Source of the DNA: Bacilli bacterium
Lineage (GTDB): Bacteria > Bacillota_I > Bacilli_A > ML615J-28 > CAG-313
NCBI GenBank assembly: GCA_017937305.1
Contig: JAGBDV010000020.1
Coordinates: forward strand, 160,576 to 224,575
DNA length: 64,000 nt
Direction: 5' to 3'
In this document: in pieces, positions 10,803 to 16,541 of the stretch
How the letters are laid out: every line of letters begins with the position of its first letter
Numbering within the stretch: the stretch's first letter is position 1
Position numbers and translations under genes: made by a program
Notes under the pieces: model-generated
Database searches by the model: none
Told to the model about the DNA's origin: nothing
The model's input: the letters and a program-made list of their open reading frames with translations, nothing else

Positions 10803-11564
10803 ATGAGAACTTCAAATATAGTTTTTAGAAAACTAAGAAGAATGGAAGGATATACTTACGATACAGCAACAATATCTGGTGTAAGTATTAAAAGTACAAT
10901 TTTATTATTAATAACACTTGTATCTGCTTGCTTATCAATTATTTTTCTTAGTGCTTTAAGCATGCAATCAATGCTGCTTTATGCTTTAGCAACTATTGCA
11001 ACTGTTGTATTACAATTAATTATTGTATTTAAACCAGCAACAGCAAAAAATTTATCTATTCCTTACGCAATATGTGAAGGTTTAATTATCGGTGTAATAT
11101 GTGATTTAATGGAGTTAGCACTTCCTGGTGAGGGATTTGCATTAGCTGGTGGAGCTTTAATGATTACAATTGGAATTGTACTTGCCGCATGCATATTATA
11201 TTCTCATGCAGGACTTAGAGCTAAATCTGGGTTTATTAAATTCTTTATAATTTTACTACTAGGCTTTTCGATCGCATCAGCATTTTTCTCGCTAACTGCT
11301 TTAATTATAAGATTAACAACGGGTATTAGTTTATGGTCTATCTACTTGGGATCATCATTATCTATTGCTGTTTCTTTTATTATGGTAGTTGTTGCATCAA
11401 TTTATGTATTTATAACTATTCAACAAACTAATGAAATTGTTAATCAAGGTATTGATAAAAACTATGAATGGTATGCTGCATTTGGTATTGCAATAACTGT
11501 TATTTGGTTATTCTTAGAAATATTAGAATTATTATTAAAAATAGCTGCTAAAAGAGATGACTAA
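10803..11564 (+). CDS. Polytopic membrane protein, Bax-inhibitor-1-like (BaxI_1-type) candidate
   Basis: The MRTSN.VF N-terminus is typical of that family and is followed by about 7 hydrophobic helices. The assignment rests on memory of the family pattern only. Confidence 0.5.
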   Translation: MRTSNIVFRKLRRMEGYTYDTATISGVSIKSTILLLITLVSACLSIIFLSALSMQSMLLYALATIATVVLQLIIVFKPATAKNLSIPYAICEGLIIGVICDLMELALPGEGFALAGGALMITIGIVLAACILYSHAGLRAKSGFIKFFIILLLGFSIASAFFSLTALIIRLTTGISLWSIYLGSSLSIAVSFIMVVVASIYVFITIQQTNEIVNQGIDKNYEWYAAFGIAITVIWLFLEILELLLKIAAKRDD

Positions 11565-11649
11565 ATTTGAAATGAGTAAAACTATTGTTTTACTCATTTT
11601 TTATATTTTATTCTTTTATGCATAAACTATTAGTAAGAGGTATTTTTAT

Positions 11650-12675
11650 ATGAAACTTAGTATTAATAGTCTAATTAAAATTTTATTAATTATTTTAATC
11701 GCAATAAGCTTTTTATATTTATTTAATTATGTTTCATCTTTTATTTTTTCATTGCTTGGAATATTAGTTCCTTTTTTAATTGCGTTTACTGTTAGTTTTA
11801 TTGTAGATCCTTGGGTAAAATATTTAGAAAAGAAGAAGATTAATCATAAATTATCAGTTTTAATTATAATTTTGTTTTTAATAAGTATAATTATCTTATT
11901 TGGTGTATTCTTAGTTCCGTTAATTAATAAAGAACTTAGTTTTTTTATTGATAATTTCCCTGTATTAATTGATAAAATTAATGACTTATTTAATAATATA
12001 AAGTTCTTTAATAAAATAGGTCTGAATTTTAAAACAATAGTCAGTTTTTTAATTAATTCTAATGGTAATATAATAGATAAAATAATTAAATTTGTCACAG
12101 CGATTTTTTCCTCATTTATCCCAACTATTACAACTCCTATTTTAATAATCTATTTTATTGTTTATTATGAAAAAATAGAAAATTTAATTAAAAGATTAGT
12201 TGATAAAAATAGTGGTAAATACTTAATACTTAAAAACATTAAAGATTCAATGCATACGTATTTTAAATCATATTTAATTATCACTGTTTTATTAAGCTTT
12301 TTTAGTAGTATTGCGTTTATGTTACTTGAAATTGATTATTTCTTGATATGGGGAATTATAATTGGTATAACAAATATTATTCCATATGTTGGACCATATA
12401 TTGGAGGAGGTATAGTTGGGCTATTTGTGCTTACTACAAATCCAGAATTACTTATTTATGTTATAATAATTATAGTATGTTTACAGGTAATTGAAAGTAA
12501 TTTTTTGACTCCAAAAATTCAAGGTGAAGCATTAGAAATTAATCCGATTTTAGTTGTTTTTTCTGTGACATTTTTTGGTAAAATACTAGGAATTATTGGT
12601 ATGATTATTGCGGTTCCAATTGTAAGAATTATCCAAATAATTATAAAAGTGAAATTTTTTAACAAAAAAAGATAA
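11650..12675 (+). CDS. AI-2E family transporter (PerM/UPF0118)
   Basis: It has eight or so TM segments and the characteristic IPYVGPYIGG motif followed by ESNFLTPKI. Confidence 0.8.
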   Translation: MKLSINSLIKILLIILIAISFLYLFNYVSSFIFSLLGILVPFLIAFTVSFIVDPWVKYLEKKKINHKLSVLIIILFLISIIILFGVFLVPLINKELSFFIDNFPVLIDKINDLFNNIKFFNKIGLNFKTIVSFLINSNGNIIDKIIKFVTAIFSSFIPTITTPILIIYFIVYYEKIENLIKRLVDKNSGKYLILKNIKDSMHTYFKSYLIITVLLSFFSSIAFMLLEIDYFLIWGIIIGITNIIPYVGPYIGGGIVGLFVLTTNPELLIYVIIIIVCLQVIESNFLTPKIQGEALEINPILVVFSVTFFGKILGIIGMIIAVPIVRIIQIIIKVKFFNKKR

Positions 12676-12681
12676 AATCAG

Positions 12682-12710
12682 TTTACAAAAAATATGAAAT
12701 GTGATATAAT
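12682..12710 (+). promoter_or_regulatory. Strong sigma-A-type promoter (TTTACA, 17-nt spacer, TGaTATAAT) for the paralogous membrane/coiled-coil gene pair
   Basis: Read directly. The spacer is 17 nt with a TG extension, and the element lies about 70 nt upstream of the RBS AAAGGAG. Confidence 0.5.
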
Positions 12711-12778
12711 ATAGTCATAAAATATGTGTATAAAAACCAACAAAAAATTATATGCTGATGGCAAAAGGAGAGAAAATT

Positions 12779-14467
12779 ATGTTAACAAAAGCAAACAAAG
12801 TAGTAATGTATATCCTTAGTATTGTTACTATTATACTTGGACTTGTTACAGCGATCCCATTTAGAACATTACCGTTCGCAAGCAATTGCCCTAATATTTT
12901 AAATGTGGAATTCTATGTTAAGTTCTTAGTTATTCCGGTATATGCATTAGGAGCTTGTGTTTTTCCAAATATCGTAAAATATAAACAAATTAAAAACAGA
13001 TTAGAAAGAAGCAAAGTAGCTAATATTCTTAGTTATTTACCAATTTTAGTTGTAATTATTGGTCAATTAATTTTATTAGTTCACACTTTAACTTTCAAAT
13101 ACTATCCAATGTCAGCTGGTGCTCATGCAGTATTACTAGCTATTTGTGTATGTTATTTAGTATTTATGATTTGCGTATTATTCGCTGTTAATAAGATTAC
13201 AGTAAGCTTATCTAGAAAATCAAATCGCATTTTTGATGTTATTGTTGGGGCATCATTAGTTATTTTTATTTTATTATCTTGGAGAATTTTAGATGCTTAT
13301 GCTGCAAGCTACGGTCTTGAAGAAGGTTATATTTATGGCCAATCTAACGTAGACCCATATTTATTCTTCTTATACATCATTTTATTATTTGTTACTGTAT
13401 TCTATCTAAAAGGTATTTTCAAAACAATTAAAGCTAATGAAACATTAGTTTATTCACAAGTTCTTACTAATGGTCAAATTGATGAAATCATTTGTGAAGA
13501 ATATAATCATGCTTATAATGATATTCTACAAGAATTTGAAGAATTCTTTGCAGAAGAATTATTAGAAGATACTGAAGAAGTAGAAGAACAAGCTGAAGAA
13601 GCAGAAGAACCTGCTGAAGAAGCACTTCAAGAAGTTGAAGAACCTGCTGAAGAAGCAGCTCAAGAAGTAGAAGAACCTGCTGAAGAGGTAGCTCAAGAAG
13701 TAGAAGAACCTGCTGAAGAAGCAGCTCAAGAAGAACAAGCTGAAGACTTATCAGAAATTAAAGTTGAATCATTAGAAGACTTAAATGAATTAAATGAATT
13801 ACTTGTTCAAACTGATACTAAGAATGATGAAAAAGTAGCTGAACAAGCTGAAAACATTAAAAACCAAATTGAAGAAGAAAAGAATGCTCTTGTAAATGAA
13901 AGAGCTGAATTAGAAGCTTATCGTGCTGCTGCTCAAGCTGAACTTGCTGCTTTACAAGCTCAACTTGACGAAATTGAAGAAGCTCAAGATGAAGTAGTTG
14001 AAGAAGCACCTGTTCAAAAGAAGAAAGTATTCAAACCTACATTTGAACAAGTTGTTGCATTCGCTAAATCTTTACAAGAAGAAGATTGGAAAGTTACTGA
14101 AAATATTAAAGAAGAAACAGGTACTGGTACAATTAAATTCTCTAAAGGTAAAGTTCAATTCTTAATTCTTCAAAGTACAAGTAGTGATTACCGTATTACT
14201 TTCTTAGCTACAGAAAAGAAATGGTCTACAATTTTAACTGGTGTTAAGGGCGTTTCTATTCCTAAAAATGCTAAAGGTAACAAGTGGTTAAAATATGTTA
14301 ACAAAGGTATCGGTGAAACTTCTGTTATCAAATCATTCATTAGAGAATCTGTTAAGGGTGCTAATGAAGAAATTGCTAATATTTTAAAAGCAAAAGAAGA
14401 AGAAAAACAACGTCGTGCTGAAGCTAAGAAATTAGCTAAACAACAAGCACAAGAAGAAAATAAATAG
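12779..14467 (+). CDS. Membrane-anchored acidic coiled-coil protein, paralog 1 (6 predicted TM, EEPAEE repeats, coiled coil, shared C-terminal domain); function unknown
   Basis: The ORF-track start is 12752, but the ATG at 12779 follows the RBS AAAGGAGAG. About 6 hydrophobic helices are followed by the EEPAEEA.QEV x4 repeat and then A/E/Q-rich heptads. A globular region follows (FEQVVAFAKSL, KFSKGKVQFLILQSTSSDYRITFLA) and then a K/E-rich tail. Confidence 0.8.
   Translation: MLTKANKVVMYILSIVTIILGLVTAIPFRTLPFASNCPNILNVEFYVKFLVIPVYALGACVFPNIVKYKQIKNRLERSKVANILSYLPILVVIIGQLILLVHTLTFKYYPMSAGAHAVLLAICVCYLVFMICVLFAVNKITVSLSRKSNRIFDVIVGASLVIFILLSWRILDAYAASYGLEEGYIYGQSNVDPYLFFLYIILLFVTVFYLKGIFKTIKANETLVYSQVLTNGQIDEIICEEYNHAYNDILQEFEEFFAEELLEDTEEVEEQAEEAEEPAEEALQEVEEPAEEAAQEVEEPAEEVAQEVEEPAEEAAQEEQAEDLSEIKVESLEDLNELNELLVQTDTKNDEKVAEQAENIKNQIEEEKNALVNERAELEAYRAAAQAELAALQAQLDEIEEAQDEVVEEAPVQKKKVFKPTFEQVVAFAKSLQEEDWKVTENIKEETGTGTIKFSKGKVQFLILQSTSSDYRITFLATEKKWSTILTGVKGVSIPKNAKGNKWLKYVNKGIGETSVIKSFIRESVKGANEEIANILKAKEEEKQRRAEAKKLAKQQAQEENK
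13604..13735 (+). repeat. In-frame 33-bp tandem repeat, about 4 copies, encoding EEPAEEA(L/A/V)QEV
   Basis: The unit GAAGAACCTGCTGAAGAAGCA.CTCAAGAAGT. begins at 13604, 13637, 13670 and 13703, with only a few substitutions between copies. Confidence 0.85.
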
Positions 14468-14483
14468 AAAGGACTAGCAAAAT

Positions 14484-16313
14484 ATGTTATTAGAACGTGA
14501 TCGTAAGTTATTTCATCTTTTTGCAGTAATTTCTATTGCATTAAGTTTATTAGTTTGTATCCCTTACTCATTAGCTAAGGTTACATTATTTGAAATTATT
14601 GTTAAATACATGGTTATTCCATGTGCAATTGGTGTATTTACTTTTATTTGTTGGTCTGGTAAATATCGTAGCTATCGTCCAGCTGTAAAATTTACTACTA
14701 TTGTTACTTATACACCATTATTCTCATATACTGCTGCAATTTTATTTAATACATTACTATTATTAGTAAGAAATACTTCTGTTTATTCTCAACTTAAGTA
14801 CAACTTATTAATTATGGGATTAGCTGCAGTTTTAGTACTTATTATTGCATTAGCTCATGTTTATAGTAAATTTGTAATTAAGTTTTCTAAAAATGAAGCT
14901 TTAATCGCTGATTGTATTTTTGCAGTATTAGCACTTGCTTATACAATTGGTGGTGCATCAATTGCATTTGATTATCGTGCAATAGGTGGATTAGAATTTA
15001 AATCTGTTTTATACATTTTAATTCCTTTAATTCTAGGTGCTGCTGCTGCTTGGTTACATGTTTTAATCATTAACAATGCAAATGAACAAAAACAAGAATA
15101 TGTAGTTAAGAGCCGTCAAGAATTATATCAATTATGGGAAGAAAATTGTTTAACAGCTAAAAAGATTTATGAAGCTGCAAGAGAAAATATTTTAGAATCT
15201 TTATTAAACTACAATTTAGAAGAGTTAGGATTTGAAGAAGTTGAAGCAGTTGAAGAACCTGTTGAGGAAGTTATCGTAGAAAAAGATCCTGAACTAGAAA
15301 ATAAAGTAAATGAATTAGAAGCTGAAAAAGAAGCATTAGTAGGTCAAAATAATGAATTAAATGAACAAAATCAATCATTAGAAGAAAGAATTAATGCTTT
15401 AGAAGAACAAAATAAAGCTTTAAAAGAACAATTAGATGAAGTATTAGCAGTTATTGCTACATCTAAAGATATGATTGTAGATACACTTCAAAAGTGTGCT
15501 GATAATGATGCAGATTTAATTATGGATTCATTACAACATTCATTAGATGTTATTAAATCTGAACGTGAAGCTGTTGCTGAAAGTCGTCAAAAACTAGTTG
15601 CAGAAATTGAAGCTCAAAAAGCTGAAATTCAAGCTAAACTTGATGCACATGCTGAAAAAGTTGCTCTTGAAGAAAAAGCTAAAGCTGAAGCTTTAGAAAA
15701 AGCTCGTCTTGATGCTGAACGTCGTGCTAAAGAAGCTGAAGAACGTGCAAAAGAAAAGAAACCGATTGAACCTGACTTTGCTAAAGTTGTTGAATTTGCA
15801 GTTAGCGTAGGTAAAGATCGTGATGACGTTGAATTATCAGTTAATGATAAGCAAACAATGTACAAATTCTTACATGATGGTACTGCATTTATTGCTCTTC
15901 AAAAGACTAATAATGATTACCGTATTTCATTCCTTGCTAAAACTGAAGCAATGCGTGAACTTTTATATCAATATAATGGTGTTATTAGTTTTGATAAAGT
16001 TGTTGAATTTGAAAAAGCTAAATATTCTATTCAACTATTAAAAGCTGTTTATAAAGGTGATGAATCATTAGCCATTGAAGTAGTACAAGAATTATTAACT
16101 AATTCACTTGCTGTATTACTTGAAGCTGAAGAATTAGAAGCTCAAGCAATCGCTAAAGAACAAGCTGCTAAAGAACGTGCTAAACTTGCTGAACAAGCAT
16201 TAAGAGAAAAAGAAAGAGCTTTAGCTAAAGAAGAAGCTAAACGTCAAAAAGAATTACAAAAAGCTCAAGAAGAAGCAGAAAAACAACAAGCTGCTCCTGA
16301 AGAAGCTGCATAA
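14484..16313 (+). CDS. Membrane-anchored coiled-coil protein, paralog 2 (6 predicted TM, long coiled coil, shared C-terminal domain); function unknown
   Basis: Same architecture as the upstream gene. Its C-terminal globular region (FAKVVEFAVSV, KFLHDGTAFIALQKTNNDYRISFLA) aligns with paralog 1. The RBS is GAAAGGA. Confidence 0.8.
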   Translation: MLLERDRKLFHLFAVISIALSLLVCIPYSLAKVTLFEIIVKYMVIPCAIGVFTFICWSGKYRSYRPAVKFTTIVTYTPLFSYTAAILFNTLLLLVRNTSVYSQLKYNLLIMGLAAVLVLIIALAHVYSKFVIKFSKNEALIADCIFAVLALAYTIGGASIAFDYRAIGGLEFKSVLYILIPLILGAAAAWLHVLIINNANEQKQEYVVKSRQELYQLWEENCLTAKKIYEAARENILESLLNYNLEELGFEEVEAVEEPVEEVIVEKDPELENKVNELEAEKEALVGQNNELNEQNQSLEERINALEEQNKALKEQLDEVLAVIATSKDMIVDTLQKCADNDADLIMDSLQHSLDVIKSEREAVAESRQKLVAEIEAQKAEIQAKLDAHAEKVALEEKAKAEALEKARLDAERRAKEAEERAKEKKPIEPDFAKVVEFAVSVGKDRDDVELSVNDKQTMYKFLHDGTAFIALQKTNNDYRISFLAKTEAMRELLYQYNGVISFDKVVEFEKAKYSIQLLKAVYKGDESLAIEVVQELLTNSLAVLLEAEELEAQAIAKEQAAKERAKLAEQALREKERALAKEEAKRQKELQKAQEEAEKQQAAPEEAA

Positions 16314-16320
16314 TAAAAAT

Positions 16321-16541
16321 TGTTGATAGAAGATAAGTAAATATATTTAATTATTTATAGAGAAAAGCTGGTCGGTGAAAAGCTAATAATTGGTATATTG
16401 AAGCTCCTTCTGTAGATGGGACTAATCCTCTCCGCTTGAAGCGTTAAAACTAAAACTGAGCGTATAAAGTTATCTTTATAAACTAGGATGGTACCGCGAA
16501 TTCATGTTCGTTCCTAATAATATTAGGGACGAACTTTTTTT
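16321..16541 (+). promoter_or_regulatory. T-box leader (tRNA-Ala sensing riboswitch) of alaS
   Basis: There is an AGAGA stem I element. A GCT candidate specifier lies at 16403-16405 in the context TTGAAGCTCC. The conserved T-box sequence AGGATGGTACCGCG lies at about 16485-16498. The terminator hairpin GTTCGTTCCTA/TAGGGACGAAC plus T7 spans 16507-16541. Confidence 0.85.

Follow-up and report, generated by a model that had tools for sequence, protein, structure and literature searches.

A tandem gene pair encoding membrane-anchored proteins with YjbR-like heads in an order of uncultured Bacilli

In this work we describe two adjacent genes, gene 1 and gene 2, in a stretch of 64,000 nucleotides from the genome of a Bacilli bacterium (GenBank assembly GCA_017937305.1, contig JAGBDV010000020.1, positions 160,576 to 224,575 of the forward strand; henceforth the window). 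The two genes are ancient paralogues that belong to a small, lineage-restricted and undescribed family. Each encodes a predicted six-helix membrane domain, followed by a stalk that is in part a coiled coil, a globular head and a charged tail (Table 1). By predicted fold and by transitive sequence homology the heads belong to the YjbR/MmcQ superfamily, although they themselves score below the Pfam threshold. What is new is that a known small domain, YjbR, is found in an undescribed, membrane-tethered and paired architecture, together with a new membrane domain. Our tentative reading of the function, to which we give a probability of about 0.4, is that the proteins may be a membrane-anchored tether pair that holds a polyanion-binding head (for DNA or RNA) at a distance from the membrane set by the stalk.

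The family is small, restricted to one order of uncultured Bacilli (ML615J-28 in the GTDB lineage), and nearly always found as an adjacent pair of a type-1 and a type-2 gene. A profile of the membrane domain recovers just 137 clusters among 1.84 billion representative proteins. When the phylogenetic distribution was traced, as the initial annotation of this DNA had advised, the family was found in 50 of the 106 genomes (species) of the order; outside the order there is one marginal match (8.3e-6) among the 399 scored genomes of a class-wide sample. In the taxonomic family of the window (CAG-313) 36 of 41 positive genomes have exactly two matches. Whenever both of these are listed, they share a contig and a strand and are separated by about 1-2 kb, with type 1 upstream. 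The window's own genome holds no further copy of the membrane domain or of the head domain. In a maximum-likelihood tree of 108 membrane domains, the type-1 and the type-2 sequences form two separate clades, each supported at 99/98, and the duplication is therefore older than all known members. The pair can still be aligned in part, e.g. BLASTP matches the gene 1 protein to the gene 2 protein at 2e-10, with 28% identity over 276 residues, and the motif DYRI(T/S)FLA is found in both heads. The initial annotation, made by a model from the sequence alone, had reported two tandem paralogous reading frames whose globular domains align with each other; both statements hold, and the reading frames have the lengths and the exact positions it gave.

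That annotation had also offered the YjbR/MmcQ fold as a guess for the globular domains. The guess was correct, as judged from a fold search and from Pfam-significant YjbR domains in relatives that share the membrane domain. With an alignment of 20 family heads as input, AlphaFold models the gene 1 head at a pLDDT of 87.6, with the order of elements H-E-E-E-E-H-E-H. This is the same alpha-beta4-alpha-beta-alpha fold as in the solved YjbR/MmcQ structures (PF04237, formerly DUF419; 2FKI, P. syringae PSPTO_3016 3H9X/2KFP and D. radiodurans DR2400 2A1V). Searched against the PDB with Foldseek, the model ranks 2fki (E. coli YjbR) highest, with a probability of 1.00 and a TM-score of 0.57/0.61, followed by 3h9x (rank 2), 2a1v (rank 4) and 2kfp (rank 7), all of them PF04237 members. 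The probabilities are 0.99-1.00 for 2fki, 3h9x and 2a1v and 0.91 for 2kfp, the TM-scores are 0.54-0.61, and the E-values are modest, ranging from 1e-3 (2fki) up to 0.3 (2kfp).

The link by sequence runs through relatives with the same membrane domain. Two of these, P0165 (46.0 bits) and P0051 (34.1 bits), score above the Pfam gathering threshold of PF04237, which is 30.1 bits. Both heads in the window are matched by BLASTP to the two heads of P0165, with E-values of 1e-15 and 1e-13 for gene 1 and of 6e-14 and 1e-9 for gene 2. Taken individually, four of the 20 family heads match YjbR, with a best E-value of 3.5e-5. A profile of the heads finds nothing significant among PDB sequences, and Pfam and NCBIfam searches with the full-length proteins return only sub-threshold coiled-coil noise (ZapB, IcmG, RsfA and AuxB). 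The architecture as a whole thus lies outside the named families, as had been claimed, in that no Pfam or NCBIfam model covers it. Nor does either protein have a clear match to a characterised family, since YjbR is itself without an experimentally established function (PMC7641849). The two heads of the pair differ in charge. That of gene 1 is basic (net +11, pI 9.9, residues 413-527), and that of gene 2 is acidic (net -4, pI 5.0, residues 424-546), has an insertion and is without the PKxxKGxxW loop.

The membrane domains of genes 1 and 2 share 19% identity, and a Kyte-Doolittle plot gives six hydrophobic segments in either protein. In gene 1 the predicted transmembrane (TM) helices are at about residues 8-26, 45-65, 83-101, 117-135, 153-171 and 195-213. 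The N-terminus and loops 2-3 and 4-5 of this protein hold 12 lysines and arginines, against 2 in the remaining loops, which argues for an N-in/C-in topology with both ends in the cytoplasm. The AlphaFold model of gene 1 residues 1-262, built on an alignment of 30 diverse relatives, has a pLDDT of 87.3 and a pTM of 0.81, and consists of six long TM helices and a further helix at residues 231-261. This last helix is amphipathic and conserved across the family. Eleven positions are invariant or nearly so in both types of paralogue: P27, F28, E44, K48, P53, K67, Y86, P88, D153, Y242 and A245, the last two being in the juxtamembrane helix. The predictions of about six N-terminal TM helices and of a conserved short helix after these are thus borne out, the first by hydropathy and by the model, the second family-wide. 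A signal peptide followed by a secreted or surface-exposed low-complexity protein was also considered, and is rejected given the six hydrophobic helices, the strong positive-inside pattern and an N-terminus that is not cleavable.

The predicted six-helix domain represents a new family, and no relative of its fold could be detected. A Foldseek search of the membrane domain, which the initial annotation had suggested, found no real match in the PDB; the top structures are G-protein-coupled receptors and adiponectin receptors, with TM-scores of 0.16-0.29 and E-values of at least 0.15. Searches of Pfam and of PDB sequences with the membrane-domain profile and with family members gave scattered single matches and no consistent family.

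Table 1. Features of the gene pair and its flanks. Positions are those of the window, where position 1 is its first letter
Feature	Position	Strand	Remarks
Gene 1 (type 1, P0001)	12779..14467	+	562 aa; 76 homologues; type-1 clade in tree of TM domains
Gene 2 (type 2, P0002)	14484..16313	+	609 aa; 85 homologues; type-2 clade
Sigma-A-type promoter, TTTACA-N17-TATAAT with TG extension	12682..12710	+	11/12 matches
Gene 1 ribosome-binding site, AAAGGAG	12764..12770	+	8 nt 5' of ATG
Gene 1 six-helix membrane domain, residues 1-215	12779..13423	+	Hydropathy, positive-inside count, AlphaFold
Conserved juxtamembrane helix, residues 231-261, EEYNHAYNDILQEFEEFF	13469..13561	+	Alignment A2; AlphaFold helix 231-261
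In-frame 33-bp tandem repeat, 4.6 copies, encodes EEPAEEAxQEV	13583..13733	+	88% matches
Gene 1 coiled-coil segment, residues ~351-410	13829..14008	+	Own heptad scan, rough
Gene 1 YjbR-like head, residues ~416-530	14024..14368	+	AlphaFold, Foldseek, BLASTP
Gene 1 K/E/A-rich helical tail, ends -EENK	14369..14464	+	Last helix of head model runs into tail
Spacer between genes 1 and 2, with ribosome-binding site AAAGGA	14468..14483	+	16 nt
Gene 2 six-helix membrane domain, residues 1-200	14484..15083	+	Hydropathy; membrane-domain profile A2 272 bits, six-frame search
Gene 2 leucine-zipper coiled coil, residues ~268-333	15285..15482	+	L at nearly every 7th residue; heptad scan
Gene 2 divergent YjbR-like head, residues ~425-545	15756..16118	+	Alignment A1; BLASTP to P0165 heads
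Gene 2 K/E/A-rich tail, ends -PEEAA	16119..16310	+	Sequence
alaS T-box leader	16314..16518	+	105.1 bits vs gathering score of 93; begins at first base after gene 2 stop codon

Between the membrane domain and the head lies the stalk, which had been annotated as a coiled coil of 150-200 residues. This is true in part. In gene 2 there is a leucine zipper of seven heptads, followed by a second conserved helical block. In gene 1, the coiled coil seems confined to residues ~351-410, and the ~95 residues before these are a proline-containing acidic repeat. The limits of the coiled coils in both genes are taken from a rough in-house heptad scan. The linker of gene 1, which includes the EEPAEEAxQEV repeat, has a net charge of -52 over 157 residues. 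The number of repeats varies even between close relatives, e.g. homologues that are 96-98% identical to gene 1 have 2-4 copies and protein lengths of 540-563 amino acids, and the linkers of close homologues span 141-165 amino acids with 0-4 repeat units. Across the family, stalks may be as short as ~140 residues or may hold more than 500 residues of repeats. As an illustration, in a sister genus (L021; G047:C3:29000-35500) the head of the type-2 protein is preceded by ~550 residues of nearly identical repeats of the HQAEVARLEE... type and followed by KEKLAKQKAAEKEKE repeats.

The very ends of the proteins are specific to each clade. Among the relatives (P0149-P0224), most type-2 proteins end in -[EK]AA-COOH and many type-1 proteins end in -NK or -NN; in the window the tips are at 16296-16310 (type 2) and 14450-14464 (type 1). 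This pattern in the sequences suggests that the tips may serve for recognition or as a degron. The -AA end of type 2 recalls the ssrA-like degrons of ClpXP.

To judge expression from codon usage, we ran a principal-component analysis of relative synonymous codon usage for 1004 open reading frames, anchored on tuf. The first axis holds 19% of the variance, and at its extreme are PPDK, PFOR, EF-Ts, RpoB, EF-Tu, PEP carboxykinase, RRF, PGK, RpoC, L1, EF-G and S2. On this axis gene 2 takes 13th place among the 1004; gene 1 falls at the 8.5th percentile, alaS at the 17th. Among arginine codons, CGT accounts for 77% in gene 2, 74% in tuf and 27% genome-wide, and this bias extends into the part of gene 2 that encodes the membrane domain. 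The codon choice in the coiled-coil parts had been described as looking like that of well-expressed genes, and these figures agree with it. Judged from codon bias, the proteins of the pair are probably abundant. A bias at the level of EF-Tu favours abundant structural proteins over a rare regulator.

The two proteins probably act together as a heteromer. We infer this from the nearly constant adjacency and order of the genes, from the age of both clades, from a fusion of two membrane modules and from the loss of heads by one partner. The fusion is a metagenome protein of 734 amino acids (P0199), in which two six-helix modules, at residues ~1-235 and ~245-450, are followed by one YjbR-like head (PF04237, 20.8 bits); it suggests that the two membrane modules may operate as one unit. 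In several lineages the head has been lost from the type-1 partner and retained in the type-2 partner. For example, one genome (G047) has a headless type-1 protein of 328 amino acids that ends in a zinc ribbon, next to a 1111-amino-acid type-2 protein with a head; another (G056) has a headless type 1 of 276 amino acids and a type 2 of 511; and in a third locus (L020) a headless type-1-like gene of 342 codons overlaps the start of P0269. The sole heads of such pairs have net charges of +13, +9 and +7 and pI values of 9.5-9.9. At least one strongly basic head is kept in every pair that we examined, and in the window this is the head of gene 1. From these comparisons, selection appears to act on one strongly basic head for each pair, with the head of gene 2 having turned acidic. 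A Pfam scan of 20 long or unusual relatives for informative fusions returned only YjbR and zinc ribbons.

How might such a pair work? YjbR has a 'double-wing' fold like that of the DNA-binding domain of phage T4 MotA, and DNA binding has been predicted for it (PMC7641849, PMC3424535). If the pair is a tether, type 1 and type 2 would join as a heteromer through their membrane domains, their zippers or both. The basic head would then bind a polyanion, an analogy drawn from the DNA-binding surface predicted for YjbR and from T4 MotA, and the acidic, partly coiled-coil stalk would set the distance between head and membrane. The nucleoid, or RNA, would thereby be linked to the membrane. That every part of the most complete version holds at once, i.e. 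that the pair is a novel, abundant, heteromeric (6+6 TM) tether between the membrane and the nucleoid or RNA, with one basic head per complex, a reach tuned by stalk repeats and an occurrence specific to the order, strikes us as doubtful.

Several points weigh against a tether of this kind. Both proteins of the window are without a PF04237 match at E<=1, and a six-frame search of their own genome likewise finds none. DNA binding has been shown experimentally for no protein of the YjbR family (PMC7641849, PMC3424535), and the ligand of a basic head could instead be an acidic lipid, a partner protein or the acidic stalk of the pair. The putative heteromer is drawn solely from gene order and domain loss, and codon bias is only a proxy for abundance. 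One genome of 97% completeness (G057) carries a single copy, therefore the pair is not obligatory; about half of the order's genomes are without the family, therefore it is not essential.

The evidence fits a scaffold equally well as it fits a tether to the nucleoid or another polyanion. Here the proteins would be membrane-anchored scaffold or cytoskeletal elements, as the initial annotation had proposed, for division, shape or sporulation, with a coiled-coil lattice under the membrane and with heads and tips that make protein contacts instead of binding nucleic acid. Coiled coils are present, including the seven-heptad zipper, codon usage points to high expression, and the C-terminal tips are conserved by clade (-AA in type 2, -N[KN] in type 1). 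The organism is a spore former, as spo0A and spoIVB are in the window, and EzrA is absent from the whole order. However, this absence is uncorrelated with the presence of the pair, and no sequence or fold link to a known division or shape protein was found; the ZapB profile reaches 17.6 bits where its cut-off is 31.5, and the match is limited to the leucine zipper of gene 2, a weak score that reflects the coiled coil and nothing else. A scaffold also does not predict that one strongly basic head is kept in each examined pair. A scaffold is in our view unlikely, if a serious candidate.

Two further explanations start from the membrane domain. The pair could be a membrane-bound one-component transducer, in which the six-helix domain senses a cue from the membrane or the outside and the head is a sequence-specific transcription factor, with a logic like that of ToxR/CadC. 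A polytopic membrane domain is indeed joined to a cytoplasmic, putative DNA-binding domain, the charged residues E44 and K48 (TM2) and D153 (TM5) are invariant or nearly so, and T4 MotA, a transcription factor, has a DNA-binding domain to which the fold of YjbR is similar (PMC7641849). We nevertheless hold this to be improbable: codon bias at the level of EF-Tu and a near-consensus promoter are atypical for a regulator, a stalk of ~140 to more than 500 residues is difficult to square with precise signalling, and a Pfam scan of the pair finds no winged or other helix-turn-helix, no other DNA-binding domain and no receiver domain. Slightly less credible still is that the six-helix domain is itself the functional part, as a channel, a transporter or in lipid handling, with stalk, head and tail attached to regulate or localise it. 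Conservation is highest in the membrane domain, many distant homologues align to only the first ~46% of gene 1, many relatives of ~270-340 amino acids consist of the membrane domain and an acidic tail only, and polar residues are conserved inside the helices. That said, neither fold nor sequence gives any similarity to a transporter or channel (the best TM-score is 0.29), and in the examined pairs the headless copies adjoin a partner that bears a head. A role in anti-phage defence receives no signal from PADLOC, which returned zero matches, and PHROGs gave only weak low-complexity or coiled-coil matches (E>=5.6e-4).

The promoter of the pair had been called near-consensus in the initial annotation, and it is: the TG extension is present, and the site is the top-scoring one of the region. 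For gene 1 there is an alternative in-frame ATG at 12752, which would give a protein of 571 amino acids; the start at 12779 is favoured because it has a ribosome-binding site and because its MLTK start is common to homologues. No terminator was found between the stop codon of gene 2 and the T-box of alaS, therefore transcripts of the pair must enter the T-box. The conditional T-box terminator of alaS, at 16506-16534, may thus end the operon of the pair too. A candidate separate promoter, TTGATA-N17-TTTAAT, is at about 16324-16352, within the Rfam T-box match.

On the 5' side of the pair (10803-12675) are genes for a polytopic membrane protein of 253 amino acids and for a protein of 341 amino acids that resembles the AI-2E family of transporters; an AI-2E gene has the equal position in one relative (L001). 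Even in a relative whose type-1 membrane domain is only 30% identical, the pair is found at the equivalent place, in the gene order polC, gap, AI-2E transporter, type 1, type 2, alaS, ruvX and DUF1292. In B. subtilis an AI-2E gene (yrrI) likewise adjoins alaS. It thus seems that the pair was inserted into an AI-2E/alaS gene order that predates it. Elsewhere in the family the neighbours differ, e.g. P0251 adjoins a diadenylate cyclase gene and is without a type-2 neighbour. The window has a low G+C content of about 26-30%, and the assembly from which it comes (G000) is 1.43 Mb in size and 72% complete. The gene for ribosomal protein L2 is missing from this assembly (PF00181, zero matches), which is consistent with that level of completeness, and the main ribosomal protein cluster is probably missing as well.

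YjbR/MmcQ domains are widespread, structures have been solved and the prediction of DNA binding is long-standing. Here the domain gains a fixed context: a membrane, a stalk, one basic copy per pair and apparently abundant proteins. This context makes the DNA-binding prediction directly testable. If the pair is a tether, it would represent a lineage-specific organisation of chromosome or RNA in gut Firmicutes with small genomes (1.4-2 Mb) and without a cultured model, and would be the first functional context for the widespread YjbR domain. If it is a scaffold, the two genes would still be among the most codon-optimised of the genome that lack a known function.

It remains to compare the pair with known systems. 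YjbR members described so far either occur as small soluble proteins or are fused to EVE, TerB, GNAT or nuclease domains (PMC7641849), whereas here the domain sits at the tip of a long stalk that an anchor of six membrane helices carries. The literature that we searched describes neither YjbR on a polytopic membrane anchor nor the architecture as a whole. The C-terminal domain of T4 MotA is like YjbR in both structure and electrostatics (PMC7641849, PMC3424535), and the head of gene 1 is strongly basic, as a DNA binder would be; MotA, however, is a soluble phage transcription activator, unlike the membrane-anchored pair. Between the head and MotA itself there is no direct match by sequence or fold that can be named. 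Against a viral library, Foldseek matched the head to small proteins of Bacillus phage G, to an Alc-like protein and to an unnamed viral protein of 215 amino acids (TM-score 0.54).

ToxR and CadC have a winged-helix (OmpR-type) DNA-binding domain, one TM helix and a sensor domain on the outside, whereas the proteins of the pair have six TM helices with short external loops. Membrane-anchored coiled-coil proteins of Firmicutes such as EzrA share part of the layout: a membrane anchor precedes long coiled coils in the cytoplasm, and, like the pair, they are probably abundant. EzrA itself has a single TM helix and an arch of spectrin-like repeats; the pair differs in its six TM helices and its globular head. 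The EzrA model (PF06160) has no match in the window's own genome and scores over the cut-off in one of the 106 genomes of the order, while it detects EzrA in the B. subtilis and Lactococcus controls. A pair that replaces EzrA was therefore rejected for want of any signal, EzrA being absent from the order with or without the pair. In proposed logic, a DNA-binding module coupled to the membrane, there is a parallel with Noc and RacA-DivIVA of B. subtilis, although homology to either was neither expected nor found. Noc couples a ParB-type domain to an amphipathic helix and RacA a helix-turn-helix to a partner protein, and the likeness of the pair to these systems is one of function only.

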